Assembly: GCA_003453595.1 (NCBI GenBank)
Contig: DMOG01000026.1
Location: 6,567 to 70,566, forward strand
Length of the DNA: 64,000 nucleotides
From: Candidatus Uhrbacteria bacterium
Lineage (GTDB): Bacteria; Patescibacteriota; Patescibacteriia; UBA9934
Direction: 5' to 3'
In this document: in pieces, positions 6,336 to 50,018 of the stretch
Layout: each line of letters opens with the position of its first letter
Numbering within the stretch: position 1 is the stretch's first letter
Program-made: the position numbers and the translations under genes
Notes under the pieces: generated by a model
The model's database searches: none
What the model saw: only the letters and a program-made list of their open reading frames with translations
Told to the model about the DNA's origin: nothing

Positions 6336-6555
6336 AGAGATTTATTAATTAACGCGAAATAATAGCACAAAAACGCGGTTTTGTCAATCACAAAACCTAA
6401 TCTTTACTATAAATAATGTACTATAAATAATTGACAAAAAGCCTTATTTAGACTACACTTCTCGAGTTGTACTAAGGGATAGCCATGCGTTCCCCGACTA
6501 TTTTAAAAACTTAAGCCTGTACATCGAGTTATCACAACAGTGGAAGCCTCATAGC

Positions 6556-6596
6556 AACCACCCCCCACCCCTCCTTAGAAAAGGAGGGGAGTCGAG
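6556..6596. repeat. Copy of the dispersed palindromic repeat (AACCACCCCCCACCCCTCCTTAGAAAAGGAGGGGAGTCGAG) in the 5' leader of the DEAD-box helicase gene
   Basis: Matches the family consensus CCCCTCCTT-loop-AAGGAGGGG. Confidence 0.6.
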
Positions 6597-6636
6597 ATGT
6601 GATGCCACAGGGGTTTGAGTAATATACGGCACATGC

Positions 6637-11405: not shown

Positions 11406-11423
11406 GATCTTGAAAAGAATGTG

Positions 11424-19153: not shown

Positions 19154-19194
19154 AGTGGAGTTATTTTATCACAAAACGCAGACGGCAGATAAAC

Positions 19195-19365
19195 TCGGTC
19201 TCTCCCCCTTTTACAAGGGGGGAGTGGGCTGTGCCCTTCGTAGCCCAGAGGGCGAAAAAGGGAGGGGGTTAATATAGCTTCCGCCTTCCGGAATAACCAC
19301 CCCTAGCCCCTCCTTAAAAAGGAGGGGGAACCAAGTATTCCTAATCCCAATCTCCTCAATCCCCT
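19195..19365. repeat. Cluster of palindromic repeat elements (CTCTCCCCCTTTTACAAGGGGGGAG; GGGCTGTGCCCTTCGTAGCCCAGAGGGC; AGGGAGGGGGTTAATATAGCTTCC; AACCACCCCTAGCCCCTCCTTAAAAAGGAGGGGG) at the left edge of high-GC island B
   Basis: Several hairpin-forming units are shared with the clusters at 30690-30925 and 33230-33375. Confidence 0.65.
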
Positions 19366-21467: not shown

Positions 21468-21529
21468 TCGCGGACTCGACCTACTATGCCCCCGACACAG
21501 CTGTGTCGGGGGCGTTGCGCGTTCTAAAT

Positions 21530-21594
21530 GGGGTCAGGTCTTTACTCGGAACACCTCATATCGATTTGGGTGTTCCGAGTAAAGACCTGACCCC
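21530..21594. repeat. Long-stem hairpin element, copy 1 (26-bp arms GGGGTCAGGTCTTTACTCGGAACACC / GGTGTTCCGAGTAAAGACCTGACCCC around a 13-nt loop)
   Basis: A perfect inverted repeat. The same arms recur at 49939-50003 with a different loop. Confidence 0.8.
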
Positions 21595-21598
21595 ATCT

Positions 21599-26507: not shown

Positions 26508-26592
26508 TTCGCGAAACTAAGTCAGTTAGACTTAGACACAGAGACTTAGACATTTTGTCTAAGTCTCGAAGCACTTTAGCTTGATTTTATTG
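26508..26592. repeat. Left flanking repeat of the IS200-like element (two hairpins: CTAAGTC-agtta-GACTTAG and GACTTAGACA-ttt-TGTCTAAGTC, plus CGAAGCACTTTAGCTTGATTTTATTG)
   Basis: A near-identical copy lies at 27370-27449 in direct orientation. Confidence 0.75.
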
Positions 26593-26638
26593 ATTTTTTT
26601 TTATTTTGTATAATCCTTTTCAGCTATATTTCAATAGA

Positions 26639-27369: not shown

Positions 27370-27449
27370 GTGTCTTAGTCAATTTGACTTAGACATAGAG
27401 ACTTAGACAAAATGTCTAAGTCTCGAAGCACTTTAGCTTGATTTTATTG
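27370..27449. repeat. Right flanking repeat of the IS200-like element (GACTTAGACA-aaa-TGTCTAAGTC hairpin; the loop is inverted relative to the left copy)
   Basis: A direct sequence match to 26508-26592. Confidence 0.75.
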
Positions 27450-27454
27450 GGTTT

Positions 27455-28285
27455 CTATTTTCGCGGAGATTCTTTGCTGCGGTATTTATAAAAAAACTTT
27501 ATGGCACTATTTATCTGAATCCAAGTAAATTTATTGAACATTTGTTGCAAAAGCCCGCCGTCAGCGCTAGCTCGGCGGTGGTAGTGAATCATGTGTGCAT
27601 TTGGATAATACACAACTTTGTGTCCGTGTTCCCAAAATCGGCGACACAAATCATTATCTTCGTAATACATGAAAAATCGCTCATCAAAACTGCCGACTTC
27701 ATCCAAGGCAGTTTTGCGCGTAAACAAGGCCGCGCCAATTAGTGAATCAACCTCCATCTGTTGATCATGGCTTTGATCCATCATCAAATAATCCTCAATC
27801 GCTTGCTTACCAACTCCAAACTTTCCTAAAAATGTTCGACGATATGCTGGCACCATTAAAGTTGGAGACCGATAACATGAATACTGCAAACTTCCGTCTG
27901 GATTACGCAATTGCGGACCACACATTCCCACCTCTGGATTTGCGTCCATAAACTCCAGCATTGTTTCCAACGACTCTGGCTGGATCACAATATCTGGATT
28001 AAAAATCAGTACATAACGCCCACGCGCCACATCTATCCCCCTATTCATAGCTGAGCCAAATCCAACATTACGCTCCAGCGGAATATGACGAACCTGTGGA
28101 AACTCAGCGCGCGCCATTTCTCCAAATCCAGCCCCTGGATTGTTATCAACCACAATAATTTCAAAACCAAGCTTTGGTGCAGCTCGTCGAATACTATCAA
28201 GCGTTTGGCGAATAAGATACTTTTCAAATGTATGGACAATGATAATCGACAAGTCCAGTTGTTGGGCCTTATCTGACATAGGCAC
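27455..28285 (-). CDS. Glycosyltransferase family 2
   Basis: Has 'IIVVDNNPGAGF...' and 'FNPDIV', the GT2 DxD-like region. Confidence 0.75.
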   Translation of the reverse strand: MPMSDKAQQLDLSIIIVHTFEKYLIRQTLDSIRRAAPKLGFEIIVVDNNPGAGFGEMARAEFPQVRHIPLERNVGFGSAMNRGIDVARGRYVLIFNPDIVIQPESLETMLEFMDANPEVGMCGPQLRNPDGSLQYSCYRSPTLMVPAYRRTFLGKFGVGKQAIEDYLMMDQSHDQQMEVDSLIGAALFTRKTALDEVGSFDERFFMYYEDNDLCRRFWEHGHKVVYYPNAHMIHYHRRASADGGLLQQMFNKFTWIQINSAIKFFYKYRSKESPRK

Positions 28286-29300
28286 GAATTTCTTTTTCTG
28301 GTTTTATTTGATGCTTGAGAATGAATTTACGCTTCTTTAACATTTTTGGCAAAAGCCAAACTATCTCCAACAAGCGCTTGCGAGTTTGTTTTTCAAATAA
28401 AAATCCATAGATTGCGCGAACAAACTCATGAAAAAAAATCCATGGTAATGACAAAATTGCATCGCCAACAGTCAGATTCTTGAGTAAAACCAAAAGCTGA
28501 TTGCGGGTTGAGTAAGCAGCGAAAAATGGATTTTGCGCCTGACGATTTTTCAATCGTTTCCACCAAGACTGAGTTTGCGCCCCATACATTCCGCGGTAAT
28601 GATAAGCAATCGCGCCTGGCACAAACACTGTTTTCCAGCCTCGCTTTTGCAATCTCCAGGCCAAATCACAATCCTCACGATAAGCAAAAAAATCACTATC
28701 AAAAAAATCGTTGCCAATCATTACATCAGCCACGACTTCAAGTGGGATCAAAAACATTGCGCCCCCAGGACCAAATAAATCTGTGCGTATATCAAACTGG
28801 CCTGTATCCATATCTCCTGCTCCTCGATCCTCCATCCGCCAAGACTTGGAAACAACCAACCCGGTGGTATCAATCACATCTGACTTAACCGTCTCCTCCA
28901 AATACTCATCTCCCACATTCTCGCCAAACGCCCGGTAGATCTTTGGCTGGACAGCTCCGATATTTTTACCAAGAGCTTTGACCATATTCTCAATCGCCTT
29001 TGGCTCAACCAACATATCAGCGTTTGCCAACAAAATCGCCGCCTGCTCACCCTCTGGCGCACGATCCAGAGTAAATCGAATCAACTGATTGTGACCCTCG
29101 GCAAAGCCAAGATTGCGCTTATTGCGAACTATCAAATTCTTTGGACAATGATGGGAAATATAATCATAGGTCTCATCAGTACTACCATTATCCAACAGCC
29201 GAATAGTAAAGTTTTTGTAAGTTTGTTGAGCCAAAGAATCCAAAAGAGCAGGCAAATAATCTCGCTCATTCCAGGCAATAATGTGCACATATACATGCAT
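28269..29300 (-). CDS. Glycosyltransferase family 2 (rhamnosyltransferase-like)
   Basis: Has 'IIAWNERDYLPALLDSLAQQTY...RLLDNGSTDET', the GT2 N-terminal signature. Confidence 0.75.
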   Translation of the reverse strand: MHVYVHIIAWNERDYLPALLDSLAQQTYKNFTIRLLDNGSTDETYDYISHHCPKNLIVRNKRNLGFAEGHNQLIRFTLDRAPEGEQAAILLANADMLVEPKAIENMVKALGKNIGAVQPKIYRAFGENVGDEYLEETVKSDVIDTTGLVVSKSWRMEDRGAGDMDTGQFDIRTDLFGPGGAMFLIPLEVVADVMIGNDFFDSDFFAYREDCDLAWRLQKRGWKTVFVPGAIAYHYRGMYGAQTQSWWKRLKNRQAQNPFFAAYSTRNQLLVLLKNLTVGDAILSLPWIFFHEFVRAIYGFLFEKQTRKRLLEIVWLLPKMLKKRKFILKHQIKPEKEIRAYVR

Positions 29301-29329
29301 AGTAAGTTTAGTTTACTTGGAAAAAGGGT

Positions 29330-29700
29330 GATTGTCGAGGAGGCCAACCCCCCACTTCTCAGTTCGATCAAATTCGAAAAGATCTCTCCCCTTCTTCACT
29401 AAAGTTACGAAGGGCCCATCGAAGTTTGATACGAAGTTGGGCTAGGCGTCGAGATGGAGAGACTTATTCCCCACTTCGAACGAAGAGAGAAGTCTTCTCG
29501 ATGAAATCTATCGTCGCTCTGCTCCTCGGGATGGGAAATAGAAGTCGAGATAGGACAAGACTCATTCCCCACTTCGAACGAAGAGAGAAGTCTTCTCGAG
29601 AAGATCTCTCGTCGCTCTGCTCCTCGAGATGGGGAAAAAGAAGTCGAGAGATGGGAAATGCACTCCTCGACTCCTCGCGTAAACGCTCGGTCGCTCGGAA
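29330..29700. repeat. Tandem repeat array with a period of about 96-99 bp, with units beginning at 29448, 29544 and 29643 (partial) plus degenerate upstream copies; each unit contains small palindromes (TTCGAACGAA, GAGAAGTCTTCTC)
   Basis: Unit alignment was seen directly, e.g. GTCGAGAT(G/A)G...TTCCCCACTTCGAACGAAGAGAGAAGTCTTCTCGA...CGTCGCTCTGCTCCTCG(G/A)GATGGG. Confidence 0.75.
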
Positions 29701-29802
29701 TGACGGCATATGGAATACAAATATATAAAAAGCCGTCAAAAGCGAACACCCCCATGACCGAAGTCTTGGGGGTGACGGAAGGGGGTTGAGAGAGGCCGCC
29801 GT

Positions 29803-30504
29803 CTACATGAAGTAGTACCAGGCGTCGCAGCCCTCCTCGGGGGTGGTGGCGGAGGTGCCGGTGCTCCAGCCGAGCGACTGGACGCCGGACAGGCCGTCGG
29901 TGGTGGTGTCGATGGTCTCGTCCGAGAAGTAGAACTGACCGGCCAGCCCGCAACTGGTCCCGTCCAGGTTCGACGAGGCGTACGAGTACGCACCGTCGTC
30001 CACCCGCTCGACGTTGAGCTTCAGCGAGTAGAACTCGCTGTCGCAGTCGAACTCGCCCTCGACCCACGCCGCGTTGGTCGCGGTGCCGACGGCGTTGCCG
30101 TTGCCCCAGGAGGAGCAGACAGCGTTGTCACCGGCGTCGTAGGCGATGACCCAGAGGGACATCGCGTCATGCGACTGGACACCCCAGTACCCGAGGTACC
30201 AAGTGTCGGCGTCGGCATCGGCGTCGGCATCGGCGTCGGCATCGGCGTCGGCATCGGCGTCCGCGTCCGCATCCGCATCGGCGTCGGCGTCCGCGTCCGC
30301 ATCGGCGTCCGCGTCGGCATCCGCGTCGGTGTCGCTGTCGGCATCGGCGTCGGTGTCCGCGTCCTCTTCCCCGTCGCCGGGGTTGAGGTCACGATCGCCG
30401 TCGTCGGCGACGTAGCCGGTGTCGACGTCGTCGCGGTCGCGGGGCTGGGACAGGTCGGTGCAGCCGACGAGGGCTGCGATCATGGTGATCAGGAAATACC
30501 GCAT
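29803..30504 (-). CDS. Lipoprotein with a (Asp-Ala)n low-complexity repeat, in high-GC island C
   Basis: Has a lipobox ALVGC-TDLS, a long DADADA... run encoded by the GCATCGGCGTCG hexamer microsatellite (about 30200-30345), and a Trp/Gly-rich C-terminal domain. GC is about 65%. Confidence 0.6.
   Translation of the reverse strand: MRYFLITMIAALVGCTDLSQPRDRDDVDTGYVADDGDRDLNPGDGEEDADTDADADSDTDADADADADADADADADADADADADADADADADADADADADTWYLGYWGVQSHDAMSLWVIAYDAGDNAVCSSWGNGNAVGTATNAAWVEGEFDCDSEFYSLKLNVERVDDGAYSYASSNLDGTSCGLAGQFYFSDETIDTTTDGLSGVQSLGWSTGTSATTPEEGCDAWYYFM
30200..30345. repeat. Hexanucleotide microsatellite (GCGTCGGCATCG)n inside the lipoprotein gene, encoding (DA)n
   Basis: Read directly. 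The shadow ORFs on the plus strand (SASASA..., GIGVGIGV...) are artefacts of this repeat. Confidence 0.8.
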
Positions 30505-30689
30505 TTTCTTTCTCCGATTTTGGCCCTTTCGAGCCGGGGGGTGGAAGGCCTTTCGGCCGTTTTTTGAAGGTGTGACAGTCGGGATTGAACCAACATGTCA
30601 ACAGAGCAGGATATCACAAAATAGGGGTTTTGTCAAGGGGTTGGGTTGTAAAATGCACTAAAACCAGCCATTTTTGGCTGGTTTTTGAG

Positions 30690-30925
30690 GTTTTGATAGG
30701 CAACCACCCCACACCCCTCCTTGGGAAGGAGGGGAATCGAGACTCGGTCTCTCCCCCTTAGTAAGGGGGTCTTTTGCACATCATCTATTGACAAATCTGG
30801 CAAAATGGGCTAAGGTTCAGCGTTCATTATCAAAGAAGCGGAAGCCTCAACAACCACCCCTCCTCCTTCGCACAAGGCTACGGAGGACTATCGCAATTCC
30901 TCCTTGGGAAAGGAGGGGAGCCTGA
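30690..30925. repeat. Two clusters of the palindromic repeat family between the divergent island-C lipoprotein genes (GATAGGCAACCACCCCACACCCCTCCTTGGGAAGGAGGGGAATCGAGACTCGGTCTCTCCCCCTTAGTAAGGGGG; ...CAAGGCTACGGAGG...TTCCTCCTTGGGAAAGGAGGGGAGC)
   Basis: Matches the family consensus and sub-units also found at 19195-19365 and 33230-33375. Confidence 0.7.
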
Positions 30926-31092
30926 GCCAAAAAGGAAAAAACTCGGCTTTTACAATATCTGCACAAAATCGTGAAGATATTATACAAGCCGAGTTCCGAT
31001 TCCCGAAACCGGCCCGTGCCCGTCCCTCAATCCCCTTTGCGGGGCGGAGCGGGCATCACCCCCAAAGGCGGAGACCCCGCCAAGGAGGCGCC

Positions 31093-31620
31093 ATGCGCAA
31101 CCTGATGTGTCTGATCACCATCCTGCTGGCCTCGGCCTGCACGGATCTGTCCGGAAACCAGAACGGCGAGGAGACCTACGTCCCGTCCATGTCGTCCGAC
31201 GACATGGACAGCGATGGCCTGGTCGACGGCTACGACTCCGACGAGATCGTCGGCCCCATCGCCAGCTACCCGACGGAGCTCTGGGTGAACGCTGGCGCCC
31301 TGTCCTTCCCCTGGATGGGTGAGGAGATGTCCTTCCAGTGCCGCGACCACAACGGCCGGGTGCTGGACTTCGCCTGGCAGTACTGGTACAACGGCGAGGC
31401 CACCCCCGCCAACACCTGGTTCGTCGCCTACATCGACGACCGGGCCGGCGAAGGAGACTGGCTCTGCGCCTTCACCCGCAACGACCGGTCGGTGCTCGAC
31501 ATCACCGTGTCCAACGACCCCCTGGTCTGGACGCACGGCGGCGTCTGCATCTACCAGGCCAACAACGGCGTCTACCAGGCGCCGGGCAACAACTCCTGCG
31601 ACGACATCCGAGGCCTCTAG
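31093..31620 (+). CDS. Lipoprotein, hypothetical, in high-GC island C; start assigned at MRNLMC with a CAAGGAGG RBS
   Basis: Has a lipobox LLASAC-TDLS, which is the same C-TDLS start as the divergent (DA)n lipoprotein. It contains Trp and Cys pairs, and GC is about 64%. Confidence 0.6.
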   Translation: MRNLMCLITILLASACTDLSGNQNGEETYVPSMSSDDMDSDGLVDGYDSDEIVGPIASYPTELWVNAGALSFPWMGEEMSFQCRDHNGRVLDFAWQYWYNGEATPANTWFVAYIDDRAGEGDWLCAFTRNDRSVLDITVSNDPLVWTHGGVCIYQANNGVYQAPGNNSCDDIRGL

Positions 31621-31699
31621 CCTCGACCGTCGCCCAATCCTTGAACCCCCGACAGCTCAGCTGAGTATCGGGGGTTCTGTGCGTTTAGGTTATAGAACT

Positions 31700-31812
31700 T
31701 GATAGGCAACCACCCCCCCCACCCCTCCTTGGGAAGGAGGGGAGACCGAGGTGCGGGGATCGCGTGATAGGCAACCACCCCTAACCCCTCCTTGGGAAGG
31801 AGGGGTGGTTAG
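31700..31812. repeat. Two tandem copies of GATAGGCAACCACCCC-N-CCCCTCCTTGGGAAGGAGGGG; the second copy overlaps and encodes the last about 10 codons of rfbD
   Basis: Sequence identity to the family was seen. The reverse complement of the repeat translates to ...NHPSFPRRG*, matching the rfbD ORF C-terminus. Confidence 0.75.
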
Positions 31813-32656
31813 ATAAGAACTCTGCTAGTGCTTCGGTGCGGGGGCGGAGTTTTGGGAACTTTGTGTTTGCTAGTGGCGAGTAGTGTGGACATTTTGCCAG
31901 TCGGGGAAAATCACTTCTTGGGCATGGTCGATAGTTTTCTGTGATTCCCATGGCTTCAAAAACTTCTTTGGCAAATCCGTAAACACTGACAGGCTCACCT
32001 TCGTTAACTAGGTGATAGATGCCAGGACAATAGTCTTTTTCCATTAACTCCAGTACGGCGCGAGCTGCGTCCAAAGCGTAGGTTGGTAAACCATATTCAT
32101 CGTCAGCGATCTTTAAGTCTGGCAAATCACGGTTTAAACGAAGCATGATGTCGATAAAGCCTTCTTTGCCACTCTCCCCTGTAGCCTGATTACCAAACAG
32201 TTTAACAACTCGACAAATAAAGGTTTTATCACAAGCTTGCAAAGCCAATCTTTCCCCTTCAAGCTTTGTTTCACCGTATTTTGAAATTGGATTTGGAGTG
32301 TCATCCTCTTGATAATAATCCCCTTTTTCCCCATCAAAAACATAGTCAGTACTAAAATGCACAAACCTAGCGTGGACAATCTGAGCGGCCTTGGCAAGAT
32401 TCTCTGGTCCTTTGGCATTGATCTTCATGGCCAACTCAAAGATCTCTGGCTCTTCAACTTTATCGACAAGATTGTAAGCAGCGGCATTGATAATCACCTC
32501 TGGTTTCTTGTCTTGAACAAAGCTCAAAACTGATTCTATGTCTGTGATATCAAGATCTTTTCGAGTAGCTGAAATAACCTTATGACCAGCAGATTCAAAA
32601 ACCTCAACCAAGTATTGGCCAAGCATTCCTTGTGAACCTGTGATCATTGTTTTCAT
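31781..32656 (-). CDS. rfbD: dTDP-4-dehydrorhamnose reductase
   Basis: Has a Rossmann motif 'MITGSQGMLG', and its position in a dTDP-rhamnose operon and a size of about 290 aa fit RmlD. Confidence 0.75.
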   Translation of the reverse strand: MKTMITGSQGMLGQYLVEVFESAGHKVISATRKDLDITDIESVLSFVQDKKPEVIINAAAYNLVDKVEEPEIFELAMKINAKGPENLAKAAQIVHARFVHFSTDYVFDGEKGDYYQEDDTPNPISKYGETKLEGERLALQACDKTFICRVVKLFGNQATGESGKEGFIDIMLRLNRDLPDLKIADDEYGLPTYALDAARAVLELMEKDYCPGIYHLVNEGEPVSVYGFAKEVFEAMGITENYRPCPRSDFPRLAKCPHYSPLANTKFPKLRPRTEALAEFLSNHPSFPRRG

Positions 32657-32681
32657 AAAAGTGGTAAAGGTTAGTGACCAT

Positions 32682-33227
32682 TTAGAACCTTTTTTTCAAA
32701 AACTCCGCCAAGGTCATGGCCTGTGAGTCGCGGGTTGATAAAATTGGATCGCCATCGAGGGGCCACTTAATATTTATTTCCGGATCATTCCAAGCAATGC
32801 CGGCATCGAGATCTGAGTTAAAAGTATTGGAAACTTTGTATTGAAGTTCGCAATCAGTAAATGCATAAAAGCCATGAGCAAAACCTTCTGGCACAAAAAT
32901 CATTTTTTTGTTTTCTTCAGAAAGCTCAAGTCCAAACCATTGTTTGTAAGTAGGTGAACCAGCTCGCAAATCTACAGCCACATCCCAAAGTCGTCCGCAA
33001 GTACAGCGAACAAGTTTGGCCATTGGCTTTGGATCTTGTTGAAAGTGAAGACCACGAAGAACACCTTTAGCTGATTTGGAATGATTGTCTTGAACAAAGA
33101 TTGTATTCAATCCCAACGCATCAAACTTATCCTTGTTATAAGACTCAAAGAAAAAACCCCGATCATCACCATGAACTTCTGGCTCAATGATTATTAAATC
33201 TGGAATTGTGGTTTTTATTGTTTTCAT
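32682..33227 (-). CDS. rfbC: dTDP-4-dehydrorhamnose 3,5-epimerase
   Basis: Has 'DDRGFFFESYNK', 'LRGLHFQ', and 'FVPEGFAHGF', the RmlC cupin motifs. Confidence 0.85.
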   Translation of the reverse strand: MKTIKTTIPDLIIIEPEVHGDDRGFFFESYNKDKFDALGLNTIFVQDNHSKSAKGVLRGLHFQQDPKPMAKLVRCTCGRLWDVAVDLRAGSPTYKQWFGLELSEENKKMIFVPEGFAHGFYAFTDCELQYKVSNTFNSDLDAGIAWNDPEINIKWPLDGDPILSTRDSQAMTLAEFLKKRF

Positions 33228-33229
33228 GG

Positions 33230-33375
33230 GGGGAAATAGATTAAGAAAGGAGGGAAAATCGAGACTCGGTCTCTCCCCCTTAGTAAGGGGGAGTAGGAGG
33301 GGGTTAATATAGCTTCCACTTTATAAAATAACCTCCCCTAACCCCTCCTTAAAAAGGAGGGGAACCGGGTTTGAG
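33230..33375. repeat. Cluster of palindromic repeat units between rfbC and rfbB (…ATCGAGACTCGGTCTCTCCCCCTTAGTAAGGGGGAG…GGGGTTAATATAGCTTCC…CCCCTAACCCCTCCTTAAAAAGGAGGGG)
   Basis: Shares sub-units with the clusters at 19195-19365 and 30690-30790. Confidence 0.7.
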
Positions 33376-33386
33376 ACAGTTTATTA

Positions 33387-34397
33387 TCAAGTCAATCTAC
33401 CAACATTTTCTTCGTACCATTTTCGGTAGCCTGAGCTTTGTTTGATTGGCTTCCACCATGACTCATTTTCCTGATACCAACGGATCATTTGCTCAAGACC
33501 TTGTTCAAAAGTAACTTGCGGCTTCCAGTTAAGCTCTGTGCTTATTTTAGAATAATTGATTGCATAACGACGGTCCTGCCCTGGTCGATCTTGGGTAAAC
33601 TTTAGCATTTCTTCGTGCGCGCCCATAGCTTTGATAACTGCCCTGGCAGTTTGGGCAATGCTAAGTTCAGCGTCTCCGCCCATCATGTATGTGTGACCAA
33701 TTTGACCTCGTTCAATAATAGCCAATATACCAAGCGCATGATCACGGGCAGTAATCCAGTCACGGATTTGTCGACCATCACCCTGCACACTGATTGGACG
33801 GTTTTCCATGAGGTTAGTAATAGCAATGGCCAAAAACTTCTCAGGATATAAATAGGGACCATAGTTATTGGTGCAGTTTGAGATTGTTCCGCGCAAAGCA
33901 TGAGAATGAACTGCGGCGCGCACAAGATGATCTGAAGCGGCTTTGGTGGCACTATATGGATTACGAGGATCGTAGGGAGTAGCTTCATGGAACTTTGGAT
34001 CATCTGGACCAAGCGAACCAAAAACTTCGTCAGTACTAACATGATGAAAACGCTTGCCGTGTCTTACACAAGCATCAATTAGTCTTTGTACTCCTAAAAT
34101 GTTGGTTAAAATAAAAGGCTCATTATCCATGAGCGATCGATCAACATGAGTTTCTGCCGCAAAGTTTATAACAGCATCAACCTCTGAAACTAAAGTATTT
34201 ACCAAATCTTTGTCTGTGATTGAACCGTAGACAAACCGGTATCGAGGATGAGTCTGGATATCCAAGGTATTTGCTAGATTACCAGCATAGGTAAGGGCAT
34301 CCAAATTGATAACTTGCCAATCAGGCCGTTCAGCAAAGATCACACGAATAAAGTGCGATCCAATAAATCCACACCCTCCTGTGACTAATACTTTCAT
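33387..34397 (-). CDS. rfbB: dTDP-glucose 4,6-dehydratase
   Basis: Has 'MKVLVTGGCGFIGSHF', a YxxxK-type SDR, and a size of about 336 aa. Confidence 0.85.
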   Translation of the reverse strand: MKVLVTGGCGFIGSHFIRVIFAERPDWQVINLDALTYAGNLANTLDIQTHPRYRFVYGSITDKDLVNTLVSEVDAVINFAAETHVDRSLMDNEPFILTNILGVQRLIDACVRHGKRFHHVSTDEVFGSLGPDDPKFHEATPYDPRNPYSATKAASDHLVRAAVHSHALRGTISNCTNNYGPYLYPEKFLAIAITNLMENRPISVQGDGRQIRDWITARDHALGILAIIERGQIGHTYMMGGDAELSIAQTARAVIKAMGAHEEMLKFTQDRPGQDRRYAINYSKISTELNWKPQVTFEQGLEQMIRWYQENESWWKPIKQSSGYRKWYEENVGRLT

Positions 34398-34421
34398 AGT
34401 ACCTTTTACTTTACATTCTTT

Positions 34422-34988
34422 TTACTTGAGATGCAATCCTTGCTCAATAATCTCCAAAACTCGAGGTTTTGCCAATTGCCAGCCGGCTAACATTGATCCA
34501 TCGGTTATTTCTCCTCCAGCCACCATATCTTCAAACATCTCAGCTGTACAAGAAAGTTGTTCAAACTCTTCGGTTGGATCTTTACGAGCAAATGTTGTGG
34601 CTAATCCATAGGCCACAAACACCCAAACAGTTTCCTGCACCCTACCATTGCTAGGATGGAAAAATCCAATCTTCTCCATGGTGCTTGCTTTCATTTGTGC
34701 TTCCTGAGCAAATTCTTCTGCAGCTGCCTGCTCTAAAGTTTGCCCTTCACCAACTCCACCGTTGGGAAACTCAAGGGTAAACTCATCACTCAAACATCGA
34801 TATTGCTTAACCATGGGCATACTGCCCTCTTCATCAATACCAATAATCACCACTGAGTCTGGAACTTTCAAAAAATAATAATCTGCTTGATTGCCATTTT
34901 GTAGATCAAACACAGCGTGTTCGTAACTTGACCATTTACTTTGCGCCACAGTCTCTTGCGAAACTTTCTTCCATCTTTCTAATGACAT
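34422..34988 (-). CDS. NUDIX hydrolase
   Basis: Has a Nudix-box-like 'GGVGEGQTLEQAAAEEFAQEAQ'. Confidence 0.6.
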   Translation of the reverse strand: MSLERWKKVSQETVAQSKWSSYEHAVFDLQNGNQADYYFLKVPDSVVIIGIDEEGSMPMVKQYRCLSDEFTLEFPNGGVGEGQTLEQAAAEEFAQEAQMKASTMEKIGFFHPSNGRVQETVWVFVAYGLATTFARKDPTEEFEQLSCTAEMFEDMVAGGEITDGSMLAGWQLAKPRVLEIIEQGLHLK

Positions 34989-34991
34989 ATT

Positions 34992-35396
34992 TTAAAGTTC
35001 TTGGCGAATTAATTGAGCCACTTGCGCCAACTCTTCTTGAGATGGTTTTTGTTTAATAAAAGTCCGGGCGTCACCTTCATAACGAGGCATGAAATGAAGA
35101 TGAGTATGAAACACATCCTGCCCGGCATCTTCTCCGTGGTTCATTCCTAAATTATAGCCTGTAGCTCCCAGCGCCTTTAGAATTGCTGGAGCGATCTGAT
35201 AAGTCGTGGTCATGATTGCTAGCGCGTCATCAAGCGATCCTGCTTGCATTATATCTGCATGTTGCTTTGGCACTATCAAAGTATGTCCTTTGCTAACTGG
35301 TCCAATGTCCAAAAAAGCAAAAGTCAAATTATCCTCATAAACCTTATGACAAGGAATCTCACCTTTGATAATTTTACAAAATAGACAATCATTCAT
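34992..35396 (-). CDS. HIT-family (histidine triad) protein
   Basis: Has 'HTLIVPKQH' and the triad 'HTHLHFMPR' (HxHxHxx). Confidence 0.85.
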   Translation of the reverse strand: MNDCLFCKIIKGEIPCHKVYEDNLTFAFLDIGPVSKGHTLIVPKQHADIMQAGSLDDALAIMTTTYQIAPAILKALGATGYNLGMNHGEDAGQDVFHTHLHFMPRYEGDARTFIKQKPSQEELAQVAQLIRQEL

Positions 35397-35414
35397 ATGA
35401 TTATATTAAGGTTA

Positions 35415-35470
35415 ATGGATCCGAGTTCACACTCCCCCTTCCCAAGGGGGAGGTAGAGGGGGTTGCCCAC
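35415..35470. repeat. Palindromic repeat copy (CACTCCCCCTTCCCAAGGGGGAGGTAGAGGGGGTTGCC)
   Basis: A variant of the family core. Confidence 0.55.
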
Positions 35471-35524
35471 TTATTGTAGCGCTTTTTTGACTTTATTCAA
35501 AACTGATTCCAAATCTTCATATAT

Positions 35525-35821
35525 CTAATTATTAATGAAGCGAAGTATTATTAAGCCTTGTTCCACAAAAAAATTATCTCTTATTCGGTCATGCAATTTT
35601 CCACTCTCTTGATAGTGCGAATCACCATCCACTTCGATAACCAATTTCTTCTCAGGGCAATAAAAATCGGCTATATATACTCCTATACCATGTTGCCGAC
35701 GGAACTTTACTCCTAATTGTGATCTGCTCAAATATCTCCAGAGAATCTGCTCTGCTTTTGAACAATCAGACCTTAATTGGCTTCGTTTACTTTTTTGAAT
35801 TCTCTGATTAAAAACTTTCAT
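35525..35821 (-). CDS. DUF559 / Vsr-like endonuclease-domain protein
   Basis: 'AEQILWRYLSRSQLGVKFRRQHGIGVYIADFYCPEKKLVIEVDGDSH' is the DUF559 pattern. The ATG start is at 35819-35821. The upstream GTG-start extension would be encoded by the repeat at 35822-35866. Confidence 0.7.
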   Translation of the reverse strand: MKVFNQRIQKSKRSQLRSDCSKAEQILWRYLSRSQLGVKFRRQHGIGVYIADFYCPEKKLVIEVDGDSHYQESGKLHDRIRDNFFVEQGLIILRFINN

Positions 35822-35866
35822 ATAATAGGCAACCACCCCTACCCCCTCCTTGGGAAGGAGGGGTGC
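35822..35866. repeat. Palindromic repeat copy (TAGGCAACCACCCCTACCCCCTCCTTGGGAAGGAGGGGTGCGC) abutting the DUF559 start
   Basis: Matches the family consensus. Confidence 0.7.
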
Positions 35867-35867
35867 G

Positions 35868-36200
35868 CTAATTATCGGCTTTTAATAAGACAAACGGCAG
35901 CGCAAGTCCGATCAAGGAAATAAAAATTCTGAAATCTCCAAATGTTGTTCCTTCGCGCCAGAGAATGATCATGAGCAATAGTCCGACAAAAATCTTAAAA
36001 ACAATCCACATCAAAGATCTACCCTTTCGCTCTATGGCAACCTGCGCCCACCAAATCCCAAAAACAATGGCTGGAATTAAAATCAAATGAACTGAAAATA
36101 CATAACTAACAAACCCAGGCCTAAGATACTCGCACAACAAAAAGAACCCATAACTAATTACGCTCACTAAAAATCCTGTTTTAGCAATTACATCTTTCAT
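35868..36200 (-). CDS. Small polytopic membrane protein, hypothetical
   Basis: Has three hydrophobic helices and overlaps the upstream gene by 4 nt, suggesting an operon. Confidence 0.45.
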   Translation of the reverse strand: MKDVIAKTGFLVSVISYGFFLLCEYLRPGFVSYVFSVHLILIPAIVFGIWWAQVAIERKGRSLMWIVFKIFVGLLLMIILWREGTTFGDFRIFISLIGLALPFVLLKADN

Positions 36201-37660
36201 AATCCAAACGGTAATAAATCTCTTAACCCAGACAAAATCTCGCGCCAGGTCATTGAATCTTTGAGGAACCTAACTGTGATTGAATGAACATCAACTTCCC
36301 CACCAAATTCGGACAACCCGGGAGTCGAAAGAGTGAACTTAACAGTATCATCGATCACAGCCAATGAACCAAGATCGAAACTTCCTAATGAAGCTAGCCA
36401 ATCTCCTGCTTGATTATTGAGGTTATAACTAGTGAGAATATAATCAACTCCCAATGAATTAATGTCAGAATATACATTTAACTCAACTGGATCTGGATTA
36501 AAAAACATACTTTGTGCAAAAGCAAACTTTCCGTCTCCACTAATTTTCAAGTCACCAACTGAGGAGTAACCATAAACAACTCCGGCGTTTTCAACTGTAT
36601 AAGTATATTTTTCATGACTTTGGGCAATGCCAATCATATCACCGTCAACTCGAACTGTTTGCACAGAATCAGCATGGGTTGTTTCAAACGCTAAATGTTT
36701 GGCATCAGTATAAAACTCTGTGGCTCGTGGATTTGATAAATATCCAATATCATCAGCGATGTAAATCTTGCCAACAAATGTCATGTATTGTTGAGTTGTT
36801 TCCAGTGAACGCCAGAAAATATCACTAGTTCCGGAAAGCTCGACTGAATAAACCCCCTCTGGCCAATTTGATTGACCGATTATGGCAGTGCCATCTGAAC
36901 TTATTTGATCTTCAATCGTGTCGCCATCGTCTTTGATAAAATATTCAAACATTACCTCATCTTCTTCATTTCTAACCCGAATAACAGCATCATCTGCCCC
37001 AGTTGTCCGATTCATGTCCATATAATCAACTGCGAGGTAAAAAGGCTCGTTTTTTAGATAGGTCAGATACTTATGATAACCACGCAAAGAAACACCGATT
37101 GTTTTAACTGTTTTTGATAACTGATAATTACTTATTCGATACGGCTCTTCAAAATCATAATGATAAGTTGCAATCTGGCTTTGATCTGGAAGATTCTCAA
37201 GAAATTCTTGGACTGAATCAAAATTGTGTTCATGTTGCAGGAGTCGAGTTTGACCGTCTGAAACCTCTGACCAACTTTGTTGTTCAAGCTCAGAATTGAA
37301 TAATGGCTCAAGCTGATAGCTTTCAGAATATATATCTGCCAGTCCTCCAAGTTCAACCACTGGCTGATCCTTTGGATCAAACACAAGCTCAACTTCAACC
37401 CTGTCAAAACTTGTATGAGGAAGCGCCACGCTAAAGTAAGTTGGTTCATCAATAATCGTGACATATGGATCTCCCGAGTCAGACGATTGGATTTCTGAAA
37501 CTCTTTGAGATGGTAGGAGATTGAAAACATAGGGTGAACTATCACCCATTTCAAAAGTAATTTCTTTGATTCCTGACGGACACAAATCAATCCAAAGCAA
37601 GACAATCAAAATTATAACTGGGGATAAAATGATGAATAATTGTATGATACGATTTCGCAT
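36197..37660 (-). CDS. Membrane-anchored extracytoplasmic hypothetical protein (487 aa)
   Basis: Has an N-terminal TM helix and no recognised domain. It sits in an operon with the GT-C and CDP-alcohol phosphatidyltransferase genes. Confidence 0.45.
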   Translation of the reverse strand: MRNRIIQLFIILSPVIILIVLLWIDLCPSGIKEITFEMGDSSPYVFNLLPSQRVSEIQSSDSGDPYVTIIDEPTYFSVALPHTSFDRVEVELVFDPKDQPVVELGGLADIYSESYQLEPLFNSELEQQSWSEVSDGQTRLLQHEHNFDSVQEFLENLPDQSQIATYHYDFEEPYRISNYQLSKTVKTIGVSLRGYHKYLTYLKNEPFYLAVDYMDMNRTTGADDAVIRVRNEEDEVMFEYFIKDDGDTIEDQISSDGTAIIGQSNWPEGVYSVELSGTSDIFWRSLETTQQYMTFVGKIYIADDIGYLSNPRATEFYTDAKHLAFETTHADSVQTVRVDGDMIGIAQSHEKYTYTVENAGVVYGYSSVGDLKISGDGKFAFAQSMFFNPDPVELNVYSDINSLGVDYILTSYNLNNQAGDWLASLGSFDLGSLAVIDDTVKFTLSTPGLSEFGGEVDVHSITVRFLKDSMTWREILSGLRDLLPFGL

Positions 37661-37669
37661 TTATATAAA

Positions 37670-39394
37670 TTAGTTTTTAATGATTGCGTACAAAGACTCA
37701 TCCCCAACGGTTGCAATCTTACGGAATTGAATATCGTTTTCCGCAAAAACCACTGATTGCAAATGTTCAATATCTGTCTTGGGAAGCGTAATTCCGAAGT
37801 AAAACATTGATGTTTGATCAAGTATCTCAGGAATGGCCTGATAGACATTTTCATCACGCAATGGAGTGATCACAGATCTATCTGGGAATATATACTTGTC
37901 AGCCATGTCAACAATAATTATGCAGTCTGGCGGTGTCTGTTCTAAAACGATCTGCTTTTTTTCAGTGAAAGATTCAAGATTATCATGAGTTTGAATAAAT
38001 CCATCATTTCCCCAGATCACTAACCGAACTGAAAAAAGAAAAACTAAAAAGATAATCAACCAAGGGCCAAAGTCAGCAAAAGGAAAATCCCTTCTTTTTA
38101 ACCATGCTCCGATCTTATCAACGGCAATGCCGGCAAATAATGAACCAAGAACAAATAATGGCAGCCAATAACGCACATAGGAGTTCCCTAAAGTCAAAAT
38201 TGAAGCATCAGGGTTGTCAGTGAATTTCCAGCTTCCATAAACAAATGCCAGCCAAATGCTAAGACCAAAAGTGATAATAAGCAAAGGTCGCCATCCTTTA
38301 TCCTTGAACACAAAAATTATTCCAAGAATTGAAAGTATGCTCATCCATGGATATAGCAGAAATCCATACTGCCAAACATTGCGCAAAATATTCATCTCAT
38401 GAATACCAAACGGGAATAGTACATTTAAAGGCGCAGGCCAAGATTTATCAATATTTGAGTCTTGATAGGCAACCACCCCCGACTCCTCCTTGGGAAGGAG
38501 GGGGGCTTCAGTCTGACTCTGATCTGCGACTGTATATCCAGTCTCTAGCATTGAACCGTATAAAACCTTATTCAATGCCAAAAATGGCAATAGAATCAAG
38601 ACTGCTGAAATTAGAAAAACAAAAACATTCTTTAAAACAAGCTCTTTTCGTTGCCAAAATAAAAATCCCACAACTAAAACTCCGACCCAAACAGCTTCTG
38701 ATGCTCGAAAAGAAATCGCCAACCCAAGCATCAGCCCTGCCAAAAACTCATCTAATATAACAGTTTTCTGCCAATTTGCTTTTATTGGCTGACAAACAAT
38801 GAAATACAAAGCTAGTAACAAAAGTGCAACAAAACCAACATTGTGCATCATTGTTCTGCCTGTGTAATACCAAAAAGCTGGATGAATCATGAGCAACAAT
38901 GCGCCAAAATCCGACAATCTTTCATTCTCAGTTAATCGATATAAAATTTGTTTCCAAGCAAATATTGCCAGAACAGCCAACAATGGAGTGACTAGCGAAA
39001 TACTCCAAGATCCAAAGATAAACGCAAATAAACCAGATAATACAGATAGTCCAAGGAAACTGACTGGAACTATGTATTGGATGCTATCTGTAACCACCCC
39101 CGCCCTTCGCTCTGCAGAGCTTCGGAGCGGCACAGCTAACCACTCCTTAAAAAAGGAGGGGAAACGAGACACAACAATCATGCTCCTTGGATGGACTAAA
39201 TTGGTCCATGAAATACCTTGATATTGTGATTGAATTGCTAAAGTTTGATCTTGAGCAAACTGTAAAGCAAAAACAGCGTTTGCATTCTCATCAGGAGAAT
39301 TAAAAATCATTTCAGATTGAGAATATGCAAAAAATGTAACAGAGAAAAAAAAGAGCAATAATGCCAAACTTCTTAAAACTGTTATTCTGCGCAT
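37670..39394 (-). CDS. GT-C fold glycosyltransferase (ArnT/PMT-like polytopic membrane protein) carrying two in-frame copies of the dispersed repeat
   Basis: Has about 12 TM helices and an N-terminal 'SPDENANAVFA' (DE-type first-loop motif). Repeat copies at 38463-38510 and 39091-39173 are read through in frame (…QTEAPLLPKEESGVVAYQD… and …SSAERRAGVVTD…). Confidence 0.6.
   Translation of the reverse strand: MRRITVLRSLALLLFFFSVTFFAYSQSEMIFNSPDENANAVFALQFAQDQTLAIQSQYQGISWTNLVHPRSMIVVSRFPSFFKEWLAVPLRSSAERRAGVVTDSIQYIVPVSFLGLSVLSGLFAFIFGSWSISLVTPLLAVLAIFAWKQILYRLTENERLSDFGALLLMIHPAFWYYTGRTMMHNVGFVALLLLALYFIVCQPIKANWQKTVILDEFLAGLMLGLAISFRASEAVWVGVLVVGFLFWQRKELVLKNVFVFLISAVLILLPFLALNKVLYGSMLETGYTVADQSQTEAPLLPKEESGVVAYQDSNIDKSWPAPLNVLFPFGIHEMNILRNVWQYGFLLYPWMSILSILGIIFVFKDKGWRPLLIITFGLSIWLAFVYGSWKFTDNPDASILTLGNSYVRYWLPLFVLGSLFAGIAVDKIGAWLKRRDFPFADFGPWLIIFLVFLFSVRLVIWGNDGFIQTHDNLESFTEKKQIVLEQTPPDCIIIVDMADKYIFPDRSVITPLRDENVYQAIPEILDQTSMFYFGITLPKTDIEHLQSVVFAENDIQFRKIATVGDESLYAIIKN
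38463..38510. repeat. Palindromic repeat copy inside the GT-C coding sequence (TGATAGGCAACCACCCCCGACTCCTCCTTGGGAAGGAGGGGGGC)
   Basis: A consensus match. The reading frame is preserved across the insertion. Confidence 0.75.
39091..39173. repeat. Palindromic repeat copy inside the GT-C coding sequence (GTAACCACCCCCGCCCTTCGCTCTGCAGAGCTTCGGAGCGGCACAGCTAACCACTCCTTAAAAAAGGAGGGG)
   Basis: A consensus match. The reading frame is preserved across the insertion. Confidence 0.7.
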
Positions 39395-39395
39395 A

Positions 39396-39965
39396 TCACA
39401 AACTATAAGTTAGCAAAGCAACTATGGCAAAAATCAGCCCAAGAATTAGGGTGCCGTATGAAATAGGGATAAACAAATCAAGTCCAAACCACAGCGCCAT
39501 TAATAGCATCATGATTCCAGCAAACTGTAATATCATCTTTATTTTTCCCCAAATATTTGCCTGCACTTTGTGTCCTTGTCGTCTCTTATACCAGCCTCCG
39601 ATAATCATCAAGCACTCAATCAAAACTATCATGTAACCCAGAATCGGATTAACATGTTGTAATAGGATTAATAAAATAACAGAACCAATAAGCAGTTTGT
39701 CAGCAACTGGATCATAAAAAGTGCCCCAATCTGTAATTTGCTGACGCCAACGCGCCAAGGAACCATCAATAGCATCTGTAAAAGCGACAAAGATAAAAAA
39801 TGGCACACCAATATCGTATTGTTCAAAAAATAGAAGTAAAAGAACCACCGGTGTCATTACCATGCGAGCAATGGTAAAATGGTTTGGTCTAAAAGCATCC
39901 GGAATCAGTTTAATGATTGGTTTCATTAAATAATCATGTGGATATAGCTTTTCAGGGTCACGCAT
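39396..39965 (-). CDS. CDP-alcohol phosphatidyltransferase family protein
   Basis: Has 'DAIDGSLARW...G...DPVADK' (D-G-x2-A-R...G-x3-D-x3-D) and a multi-TM architecture. Confidence 0.8.
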   Translation of the reverse strand: MRDPEKLYPHDYLMKPIIKLIPDAFRPNHFTIARMVMTPVVLLLLFFEQYDIGVPFFIFVAFTDAIDGSLARWRQQITDWGTFYDPVADKLLIGSVILLILLQHVNPILGYMIVLIECLMIIGGWYKRRQGHKVQANIWGKIKMILQFAGIMMLLMALWFGLDLFIPISYGTLILGLIFAIVALLTYSL

Positions 39966-43287: not shown

Positions 43288-44415
43288 TTATCTAATTATC
43301 CTAACGCTTTGGTAGATTTCTTTCAATTTTTTGTAAATCGCTGTTTTGGCAAATTGATTTTCTACTCTGAGACGAGCTGACCGTCCAAATTTAAATCTCA
43401 GGTTATCGTCTACTAATAATTTTGTAATTGCCCCAGATAAATCCTTTGCATTGGCTGGTTTAATAATAAATCCAGTCTCACCCAAAGAAACAAGAGTGCG
43501 AACGCCAGGCAAGTTGGAAACGATTGACGGCAGTCCTGACGAAGCTGCTTCCAATGTTACCAGTCCAAACGCTTCACAGCAATTAATTGCTGGCAAAATG
43601 TGAAAATCTGACGCCTGATAATATTTTGGAAGATCGTCATGACCAACCCGACCCACAAAGTGTGTTCTATCTTTGATGTTTTTTTTCGCAGCTAATTCTT
43701 GATATGCTTTCTTTTTATTTCCATCACCAATTATTATTAAATGCCAATCAACATCAGTTATCAGCCCGGAACATGATTCTATTAGCACATCAACGCCTTT
43801 AAAATAATGTGCGTCATCAAGTCCACCCACAAAAATAATAACCTTTGCCTGATGATCAATTCCAAGCTCCTGTCGAATATCTTGCCCATCACCTGGAACA
43901 AATCTATCTACATCAACTGAGAATGGCAGTTCAATTAATTTTTTTGATGTTAAATTAACAGAATCTGCATAATCTAAAGAACTCACACAGATCATTTTGG
44001 CCAAGGCAAAAATAATTGGTTCGGCCAATAATCGATAAATTCGAAATATCCATTCTTGCCAACCTGTGGCAACCGTTTTCATGTGATAAGTAATAATCAG
44101 TGGCTTTCTCCAAATCAAAGCAGCCAGCGCCACGCTTTCTGCTCCACCGTAAAAAGGATAATGTAAATGAATAAGATCAAATTTTCGCAATTTCCAAATC
44201 AATTGCGGAATAAACGCAGCATTTCCCCATTGATATAAAGGTGTGATGCGATTAAGTATCTGATTGTCTGAGCCGGCTTCATCTGCTTTATACTGTGGGG
44301 TAAAAACAGTCACATCGAAATGATCATGCACCAAAGCCTGCGCATATTCCTGCGCCACATTTCCGATTCCACCAATGCGCGGTGGATAGACTGGAGTAAC
44401 CTGTGCGATTTTCAT
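43288..44415 (-). CDS. Glycosyltransferase family 4
   Basis: Has 'EAFGLVTLEAASSGLPSIVSNLPG'. Confidence 0.8.
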   Translation of the reverse strand: MKIAQVTPVYPPRIGGIGNVAQEYAQALVHDHFDVTVFTPQYKADEAGSDNQILNRITPLYQWGNAAFIPQLIWKLRKFDLIHLHYPFYGGAESVALAALIWRKPLIITYHMKTVATGWQEWIFRIYRLLAEPIIFALAKMICVSSLDYADSVNLTSKKLIELPFSVDVDRFVPGDGQDIRQELGIDHQAKVIIFVGGLDDAHYFKGVDVLIESCSGLITDVDWHLIIIGDGNKKKAYQELAAKKNIKDRTHFVGRVGHDDLPKYYQASDFHILPAINCCEAFGLVTLEAASSGLPSIVSNLPGVRTLVSLGETGFIIKPANAKDLSGAITKLLVDDNLRFKFGRSARLRVENQFAKTAIYKKLKEIYQSVRIIR

Positions 44416-49877: not shown

Positions 49878-49938
49878 AAGTAGATATGTGATTTATGCCT
49901 ATATTTTATCGGATTATAGAAGATATGGCAACCAAGTT

Positions 49939-50003
49939 GGGGTCAGGTCTTTACTCGGAACACCCAAATTGATAAAAGGTGTTCCGAGTAAAGACCTGAC
50001 CCC
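49939..50003. repeat. Long-stem hairpin element, copy 2 (same 26-bp arms as 21530-21594, loop CAAATTGATAAAA)
   Basis: The arms are identical to copy 1. Confidence 0.8.
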
Positions 50004-50018
50004 ATTTGCGCAAAACCA

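Follow-up and report, generated by a model that had tools for sequence, protein, structure and literature searches.

A dispersed hairpin repeat in two loops of a GT-C glycosyltransferase gene of Candidatus Uhrbacteria, and its linkage to DUF559 genes

The 64,000-nucleotide stretch of Candidatus Uhrbacteria DNA considered here (contig DMOG01000026.1; "the window", with positions counted from its first letter) contains a gene for a 574-aa membrane glycosyltransferase of the GT-C fold, inside which two segments resemble a short palindromic repeat that otherwise lies mainly between genes. We consider it very likely that both segments are copies of this selfish, GC-rich hairpin repeat, that copies surviving in frame become disordered loops of the protein, and that the enzyme has stayed functional throughout. 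An earlier note, made by a model from the sequence alone, had proposed two family copies in frame within this open reading frame (ORF), and both score with an nhmmer profile made from nine window copies, insert 2 (itself one of the nine) as a full-length member and insert 1 weakly:

37670..39394, minus strand: host gene, a 574-aa GT-C-fold membrane glycosyltransferase (ORF, homologs, AlphaFold2, Foldseek, dN/dS)
39074..39160, plus strand: insert 1, a degenerate two-hairpin long-form copy whose element sequence continues to ~39176 (E 0.013)
38462..38512, plus strand: insert 2, a canonical copy, lying on the plus strand and hence antisense to the gene (E 7.5e-15)

The ORF is 100% identical to a hypothetical protein, UU40_C0003G0049, of Candidatus Uhrbacteria bacterium GW2011_GWD2_41_121, a member of the candidate phyla radiation (CPR; Patescibacteria). 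A Pfam search of its 574 residues gave no domain, and the GT-C identity suggested by the earlier note is carried by the predicted fold. In a Foldseek search with an AlphaFold2 model made on 25 homologs (mean predicted local distance difference test score, pLDDT, 83.8; predicted template-modelling score 0.85), the top 34 matches are all GT-C enzymes, the best being ArnT (5f15, E 2.7e-7, template-modelling score ~0.51-0.54) and others including STT3, PglB, AglB, ALG9 and PMT; the predicted structure has the multiple transmembrane (TM) segments of the GT-C fold and a C-terminal soluble domain. A weak NCBIfam match to the LA_3751/LA_3752 putative glycosyltransferase family and precomputed PF13231 PMT_2 matches for several homologs were also found. 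In the alignment of 25 sequences (the window's own and 24 homologs), S33-P34-D35-E36 in the first loop after TM1 is invariant in 25 of 25. By analogy we infer that this acidic motif is catalytic and, from the solved GT-C enzymes, that the loop, which also contains the turn bearing insert 1, is extracytoplasmic. The gene belongs to a conserved block that encodes a 685-aa membrane protein, a CDP-alcohol phosphatidyltransferase, the GT-C protein, a 487-aa protein, a 110-aa protein, HIT and NUDIX proteins and the rml products.

Within the model, pLDDT falls below 50 over at least 3 residues only at 79-103, 292-317 and 393-395, and the two inserts coincide with the sole long segments of this kind, 79-103 and 292-317. 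The suggestion that both would fall in predicted loops is borne out to that extent, the model placing the inserted peptides at surface or loop positions compatible with the fold.

Compared with the homologs P0002 and P0003 (P-numbers designate homologs of the window's protein), insert 1 is an exact insertion of 87 nt, or 29 codons (PSFFKEWLAVPLRSSAERRAGVVTDSIQY, aa 79-107, PSFFKEW...GVVTDSIQY). It stands in place of a 3-residue turn present in every other homolog and extends the turn between strands 72-75 and 107-110, with residues 79-103 forming the low-pLDDT segment. The insert is collinear with an intergenic long-form copy at 30843-30936, and it is the right hairpin arm alone that scores with the profile (39136-39164, E 0.013). 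Among the aligned homologs 23 of 24 do not have it, those 82% identical included. P0004 (61% identical) carries a clean 51-nt single-hairpin copy (E 6e-9) no more than 3 codons away, in the same orientation and frame. In the ortholog tree the window's sequence groups with P0002 and P0003, and P0004 is nested among P0005-P0008, which are all without insert 1. Two gains are more parsimonious on this tree than one gain followed by at least five losses, and the view of insert 1 as ancestral protein sequence was rejected. Of the two segments, which the earlier note had suggested checking as lineage-specific insertions, insert 1 is such an insertion; in the loop of insert 2, element sequence or its remnants occur across a whole ortholog clade.

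Insert 2 is a full-length copy, placed at 38459-38512 by the repeat search and 91% identical to the reference copy at 30690-30734. Read in element frame -1, it gives TEAPLLPKEESGVVAYQ (aa 295-311, within the low-pLDDT segment 292-317), and the inserted peptide, seen in its variable loop, reads PLLPKEESGVVAYQ. The length of this loop, loop 2, varies across all 25 aligned homologs, and the insert is not private to this genome, element sequence or its remnants being spread over the whole ortholog clade. P0002 (82% identical to the window's protein) has the same GGGGTGGTTGCCTATCAA arm with a different GC-rich double hairpin, and P0003 retains only GTGTTTGCCTATCAA. These two homologs, 95% identical to each other, differ in loop 2 by a 57-nt in-frame indel (locus L001, 4860-4960, against L002), which consists of the GC-rich double hairpin (TCCGGCGAAGCCGGA, TCCGGCTCCGCCGGA) joined to the same arm. 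Since different hairpins are thus found on one arm, the repeat seems to be modular: the arm would stay the same while the hairpins are exchanged. In the sister clade, the loop-2 copy of P0007 is close to the consensus and in the same frame (PLLTKEGVGEVA, E 1.1e-10), P0004 has a compound copy (E 2.6e-5) and P0005 a decayed remnant; in a distant clade at 35% identity (P0073, P0075, P0076) loop 2 contains PLLPEEGLGVV. The copies form a decay series, from near consensus in the window's sequence and P0007 to remnants in P0005 and P0003. Because the element is present in several ortholog lineages, loop 2 has apparently been occupied by element DNA for long, or invaded repeatedly, or both.

Neither insert introduces a stop or a frameshift into the ORF, just as the earlier note had read it, and to either side of each insert the coding sequence stays in frame and can be aligned with that of orthologs. 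The gene has a dN/dS of 0.11 against P0002, P0003 and P0004 and keeps 59 of 59 family-invariant alignment columns; it is under purifying selection and on these two grounds appears functional, and a pseudogene, the alternative that the earlier note had raised, is unlikely. Dispersed repeats are classic sites of misassembly in metagenomes, and it might be asked whether the segments are misassembled at such repeats or belong to a pseudogene that is open by chance. We regard this as exceedingly improbable. The identical 574-aa ORF is recorded on at least 24 contigs, and misassembly is rejected because independent assemblies (NCBI GCA_003489995.1 and ENA ERZ27254745) are identical at 1725 of 1725 nt; the alignable in-frame flanks, the low dN/dS, the retention of all family-invariant residues and the related in-frame copies at the same loops in other genomes argue in the same direction. 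An intein was considered and rejected as well, the inserts having 17 and 29 aa against at least ~130 aa, being repeat-derived and having neither a Pfam domain nor splicing blocks. For the junctions across the inserts, the predicted peptides would include EESGVVAYQDSNIDK and those over the tryptic span ...SSAER/RAGVVTDSIQYIVPVSF...

The repeat family and its copies in other genes

The repeat is a short, imperfect palindrome, multicopy and mainly extragenic in the window. Its core is a GC-rich hairpin of ~40 nt, AACCACCCC-NNN-CCCCTCCTT-loop-AAGGAGGGGA, preceded in the source genome by TTGATAGGC; the core form occupies ~40-50 nt and the long form 85-90 nt. A repeat search of the 64-kb window placed 8-9 copies in one family with the consensus TTGATAGGCAACCACCCC-TAA-CCCCTCCTT-GGG-AAGGAGGGG. 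The word GGCAACCACCCC occurs 6 times in the window against 0.15 expected, and the hairpin pattern CTCCTTNNNNAAGGAG 3 times against 0.08 expected. The nhmmer profile recovers all nine of its training copies (E 3e-10 to 4e-16) and in addition weaker or compound ones. Apart from the two inserts and the pair around a DUF559 gene described below, the copies are:

6551..6599, plus strand: intergenic copy upstream of a DEAD-box helicase gene (E 2.4e-11)
19191..19338, no single strand: intergenic; an inverted pair or else a compound copy, with 88% identity to the 33296-33362 unit (E 0.014 and 3.3e-12)
30693..30769, plus strand: intergenic compound copy, in which another hairpin comes after a canonical unit (E 4.7e-15)
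30843..30936, plus strand: intergenic long-form (two-hairpin) copy, the one collinear with insert 1 (nhmmer 30898-30924, E 2.7e-4)
31698..31752, plus strand: intergenic copy right beside the rmlD-tail copy (E 1.1e-13)
31761..31813, plus strand: copy from which rmlD takes its final 9 codons and its TAG stop (E 4.4e-16; rmlD ORF 31781-32656, minus strand)
33264..33372, no single strand: intergenic inverted pair, its members separated by a short spacer, between rmlC and the epimerase gene that comes next (E 1.2e-5 and 1.7e-12)

Rfam at gathering thresholds returns only tRNAs for the window, the repeat matching no curated RNA family, and a scan of 30500-39500 at permissive E-values gave only chance microRNA and snoRNA matches. 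Folding of single copies as DNA yields unremarkable z-scores (-0.3 to -2.4), the hairpin being too short to be singled out by thermodynamics alone. In all copies the stem pairs an anti-Shine-Dalgarno-like CCCCTCCTT with a perfect Shine-Dalgarno-like AAGGAGGGG, so that intragenic copies place a masked strong Shine-Dalgarno-like sequence within the mRNA.

ORFs cover ~89% of the window, yet 7 of 11 copies lie in the remaining ~11%, which is the usual signature of purging from coding DNA. The consensus is free of stops in only three of its six frames (DRQPPLTPPWEGG, SPPSQGGVRGG and PLLPKEGLGVV), and length and phase are therefore necessarily filtered among the coding copies that survive; the coding copies found are always a multiple of 3 nt long. 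The selection on element length and phase that the earlier note had deduced agrees with these figures.

The same note had a third copy supply the end of rfbD (rmlD), NHPSFPRRG and the stop, and the last 9 codons with the stop do fall within the copy at 31761-31813. The rmlD ORF ends ...EFLSNHPSFPRRG before its stop, and an ortholog ends ...EFLQKLGEI; here the element is read in frame -2, the frame that holds its own TAG. Copies in frame are also found in other genes. A related Uhrbacteria genome (locus L127) has one in a GT4 glycosyltransferase (ATPPSQGRAGGGYQ, E 1.4e-11), at a point where the window's ortholog (43291-44415, minus strand) shows a 10-residue gap; a Prevotella UxuA gene contains another (SPLLSKEGLGVV), and an amine oxidase gene among the cross-phylum loci contains a further one.

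DUF559 genes and the distribution of the element

One pair of copies in the window flanks a small nuclease gene:

35428..35469, minus strand: left inverted copy of the cassette, a CCCCCTT/AAGGGGG stem variant (E 3.1e-10; 84% complementary to the right copy)
35525..35821, minus strand: DUF559 gene for a 98-aa Vsr-like PD-(D/E)XK endonuclease (Pfam PF04480, E 1.7e-24)
35823..35873, plus strand: right inverted copy, adjoining the DUF559 start codon (E 6e-16)

The earlier observation that a copy abuts, and could extend, the DUF559 start is accurate: the right copy adjoins the ATG at 35821, and with a start at the GTG at 35836 the protein would gain VVAYY. Compared with its homologs, the window's gene is shortened by an in-frame TAG (after FINN), and the conserved C-terminus IYEDLESVLNKVKKALQ continues in the same frame to ~35470, as would be expected if a selfish gene in decay had recently acquired a nonsense mutation. 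The cassette of ~440 nt is absent from the 35-nt spacer of the syntenic locus L002 and absent too from L003, L126 and L127; the contig of P0008, compared by gene list, has a DUF559 gene in the same spacer, between the 110-aa gene and the HIT gene. The cassette is accordingly polymorphic for presence and absence at one site in related genomes. The protein matches PDB 3hrl (E 2.4e-15), and DUF559 has been grouped with Vsr and the homing endonuclease I-Bth0305I (PMC3424549), a nuclease class with proven homing members. In a published screen, DUF559 genes were enriched among genes bracketed by inverted repeats (PMC9881135).

A scan of the GTDB species representatives, with a query comprising the left arm and the 5' stem only (17 specified bases), found the element core at no fewer than 119 loci. 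The matches listed come from Bacteroidota, Gammaproteobacteria (Thiomargarita, Permianibacter), Desulfuromonadales, Acidobacteriota, Nitrospinota, Armatimonadota, Cyanobacteria, Ignavibacteria and Patescibacteria, and in 133 of the 160 listed the downstream bases, which the query left unspecified, complete the hairpin, so that the cross-phylum matches are not due to chance. Double-hairpin forms (L029, L070, L093, L115) have AACCACCCC... at both ends, and the single-hairpin copies dominant in the window have no terminal inverted repeats beyond the hairpin. Hymenobacter loci contain gene-less inverted pairs with short spacers. Lineage-specific expansions or tandem arrays were noted in Thiomargarita (L031; 7 copies in 8 kb, a 41-nt tandem array) and in Pedobacter fastidiosus (L084; 4 copies with identical 22-nt left flanks), each genome having its own conserved extension to the left of AACCACCCC. 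On viral contigs only 15 loci matched, and phages do not look like an obvious reservoir of the element.

In 870 kb of cross-phylum element loci, an element motif lies within 400 nt of 8 of 8 DUF559 genes; seven are accompanied by a complete hairpin (on both sides in six cases), and L091 has the arm motif only. Both cassette geometries occur among these loci. All-versus-all clustering of 313 neighbouring ORFs gave DUF559 as the only family recurring beside the element among the matches listed; the other clusters, which we set aside, were mostly translations of the repeat or unrelated neighbours common to two loci only. Among these listed matches (at least 119 loci) no RAYT (the tyrosine transposase associated with repetitive extragenic palindromic, REP, sequences) or other transposase family recurs beside the element, and no RAYT was seen near the repeats in the 64-kb window. 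For the converse test, 74 metagenomic DUF559 loci were picked by protein similarity alone, with four closer DUF559 sequences as the query, and a hairpin was defined as CCCCTCCTT-N2-8-AAGGAGGGG with at most 1 mismatch per arm. The hairpin core was present within 250 nt in 69 of the 74 loci and on both sides in 44; the geometry of the window, hairpin-GGGGTGGTT-gene-AACCACCCC-hairpin, was found in 18 of the 20 loci having full arms on both sides. The tight linkage of the hairpin to DUF559 genes and the conservation of its core across many phyla are both new. Across phyla the 40-nt hairpin DNA is better conserved than the protein it flanks (40-60% identity), which implies strong sequence-specific recognition. 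One DUF559 subfamily has the hairpin beside it almost without exception, and this offers a concrete nuclease candidate and a possible function for a large domain family named for its unknown function.

Two further loci join the element and DUF559 to restriction genes. In an uncultured cyanobacterium (OY969811.1, locus L032, 278-3700, minus strand), a 1140-aa ORF of the MmeI restriction-modification family has its methyltransferase domain split by a complete DUF559 domain (aa 522-629) and contains five in-frame hairpin copies (SPPSKEGLGVV, SPSPSLEGGGQ and others); it reads as a whole endonuclease cassette translated through within its host gene. In a Bacteroidetes metagenome-assembled genome (locus L025, 976-2076, minus strand), a DUF559 domain and the adjoining element are fused in frame ahead of the second half of the specificity domain of a Type ISP restriction enzyme, apparently a second case of a cassette that was inserted into a restriction gene and is read through.

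How the inserts may have arisen

We propose the following scenario for the inserts. The repeat would spread through the chromosome and usually be purged from coding DNA, a copy surviving within a gene only if its length is a multiple of three, its element frame is free of stops and the site is a permissive surface loop. Such a copy would then be translated as a disordered extension of the loop, insert 1 for instance becoming a 29-residue extension of the beta-hairpin turn in the first loop after TM1. Later, coding copies might decay through substitutions and in-frame deletions, or perhaps be replaced by fresh ones. The recurrent use of two loops can be explained by the small number of permissive sites in a mostly transmembrane protein, and a target preference or a selected function may also lie behind it. 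As to how the repeat moves, we infer mobilisation by DUF559: the autonomous form would be the cassette hairpin-DUF559-hairpin, and DNA breaks made by the Vsr-like endonuclease would lead to copying of the cassette and of its gene-less derivatives, formally in the way that RAYTs relate to REPs. It is a tentative proposal, and perhaps one to be doubted more than believed, that the repeat and DUF559 together constitute a previously undescribed pan-bacterial mobile system, namely a hairpin-bounded Vsr-like cassette with gene-less derivatives that multiply like REPs and whose sequence, free of stops in half of its frames and encoding a flexible Pro/Gly/Ser-rich peptide, allows them to colonise coding regions from CPR bacteria to Bacteroidota and Cyanobacteria. 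If true, such a system would be a general source of loop insertions in bacterial proteins.

Several observations weigh against this scenario, in part or as a whole. Insert 1 on its own is only weakly recognisable as a family member (E 0.013), and that the inserts are translated is deduced from an intact, constrained ORF. The assemblies all have these sites filled in the same way, with no empty-site allele among them, which gives no direct sign of recent mobility in this population. When filled sites were compared with empty ones in three cases (insert 1 with P0002, the DUF559 cassette with L002, and the GT4 gene of L127 with that of the window), no target-site duplication was evident, the orthologs being so far diverged that single bases cannot be placed with certainty. 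The DUF559 gene of the window itself is probably inactive or decaying, the search for other candidate transposases in this genome covered 64 kb, and a homing gene that targets the repeat without moving it would account for the DUF559 linkage equally well.

This last point can be developed into a different account of the spread, in which another enzyme (RAYT/IS200-like or DDE) or recombination moves the repeat and DUF559 is a homing endonuclease using it as a target. The DUF559 ORF fills all of the space between two inward-facing arms, as a homing gene would inside its recognition site; gene-less inverted pairs with short spacers exist (33264-33372, 19191-19338 and the Hymenobacter loci), both cassette geometries occur, and there are true homing endonucleases among Vsr-like enzymes (PMC2677866, PMC3239194, PMC3424549). 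Against it, the listed matches showed no RAYT or other transposase family recurring beside the element, and solo single-hairpin copies far outnumber pairs, so that pure homing would leave their spread unexplained. We consider this account possible, though rather unlikely. Still less probable, to our minds, is that the intragenic copies are kept because they are useful, either as variable exposed loops or through effects of the hairpin on mRNA or DNA (pausing, attenuation, recombination, or the masking of AAGGAGG by CCUCCUU). The occurrence of the loop-2 element in the same frame in the window's sequence, P0007, P0004 and P0073/75/76 would fit such a role, as would the perfect stems in the window's sequence and P0007 despite saturated dS (>2) between their clades and the recurrence of insert 1 within 3 codons in the non-sister window sequence and P0004. 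However, most orthologs, including the 95%-identical P0002 and P0003, have in-frame indels here or no element at all, and the copies in P0005 and P0003 have simply decayed. That the element recurs is accounted for by the few places open to it, at most two or three permissive loops in an otherwise transmembrane and conserved protein, and stems can be conserved by re-insertion or by gene conversion from genomic copies.

Taking the inserts again as surviving copies of a selfish repeat, we can compare the element with systems described before. The earlier note had called in-frame palindromic insertions unusual, but they are not unprecedented: Rickettsia palindromic elements (RPEs; Ogata et al. 2000, as reviewed in PMC10969869) are likewise dispersed palindromes, located between genes and also in frame in unrelated functional genes, where they encode extra peptides compatible with the fold. 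By this analogy the in-frame situation seen here would be functionally the same as that described for RPEs, which are the closest known case. RPEs are ~100-150 bp long, occur in Rickettsia and have no associated enzyme gene, whereas the present element has a core of ~40-50 nt, occurs in CPR bacteria and many other phyla and is linked to DUF559; on length (~45 nt against 100-150 bp) and host we do not file it as an RPE member. We know of no mobilisation mechanism for RPE-type elements. With REP/REPIN-RAYT systems it shares short, multicopy, imperfect palindromes that are mostly extragenic, inverted pairs and a small nuclease gene flanked by inverted copies. The flanked gene, however, is a Vsr-like PD-(D/E)XK DUF559 gene and not an HUH tyrosine transposase, and the GT(A/G)G head of REPs is absent, the conserved head being AACCACCCC, in this genome GGCAACCACCCC. 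REPs are lineage-specific; this element, by comparison, is tolerated in coding DNA and has the same core across phyla. Yeast mitochondrial genomes, which are AT-rich, contain mobile GC-rich palindromic clusters, one of them in frame in var1, but these belong to organelles, are unrelated in sequence and have no associated DUF559. Miniature inverted-repeat transposable elements (Correia, ERIC, BOX, Nezha; PMC10969869) are similar in being small non-coding mobile repeats that form in-frame fusions or gene ends, as in the rmlD tail; for the present element no parent insertion sequence with a transposase was found beside its loci, and no target-site duplication was seen in the three filled/empty comparisons. 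Vsr-like homing endonucleases of the I-Bth0305I type (PMC2677866, PMC3239194) share the nuclease class, the character of small selfish genes and a patchy presence at identical sites; their known members reside in group I introns or inteins of one specific gene, and DUF559 is here free-standing between multicopy hairpins.

Full-text searches of the open-access literature with the element's sequence words gave only unrelated primer matches, and in the open-access literature on CPR palindromic repeats and on DUF559 we found no description of the element. Relative to RPEs, the new features are the host lineage, the small size, the core shared across phyla, the DUF559 association and the other in-frame genes and phyla. 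In-frame selfish DNA is not specific to Rickettsia, occurring also in a minimal-genome CPR bacterium, in Prevotella, in cyanobacterial genes and in others; and since in-frame copies exist in these genes, some lineage-specific loop insertions would have arisen simply at the DNA level, a point of consequence for annotation, homology modelling and indel-based phylogeny.

Other features of the window

Three GC-rich islands (0.51-0.62 against ~0.39 elsewhere) lie at 4001-5000, 19000-22000 and 29000-31800. Their ORFs have no Pfam match or encode Asp-rich bacterial TSP3 repeats, and a 12-nt periodic GTCGGCATCGGC array occupies 30169-30415. Hairpin copies are located at or near island borders (19191-19338, 30693-30936 and 31698-31813). 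A second, unrelated palindromic family, TGGGGTCAGGTCTTTACTCGGAACACC followed by 13 nt and the reverse complement, is found at 21526-21599, 49934-50007 and 11422-11472, two of its copies being 95-100% identical and the third diverged, all in gaps between ORFs. There are in addition two direct-repeat pairs: 26517-26602 and 27374-27459 (86 nt, 87% identity), which holds the palindrome GAGACTTAGACAnnnnTGTCTAAGTCTC, and 29460-29538 and 29558-29636, a 79-nt unit repeated 98 nt apart with 91% identity.

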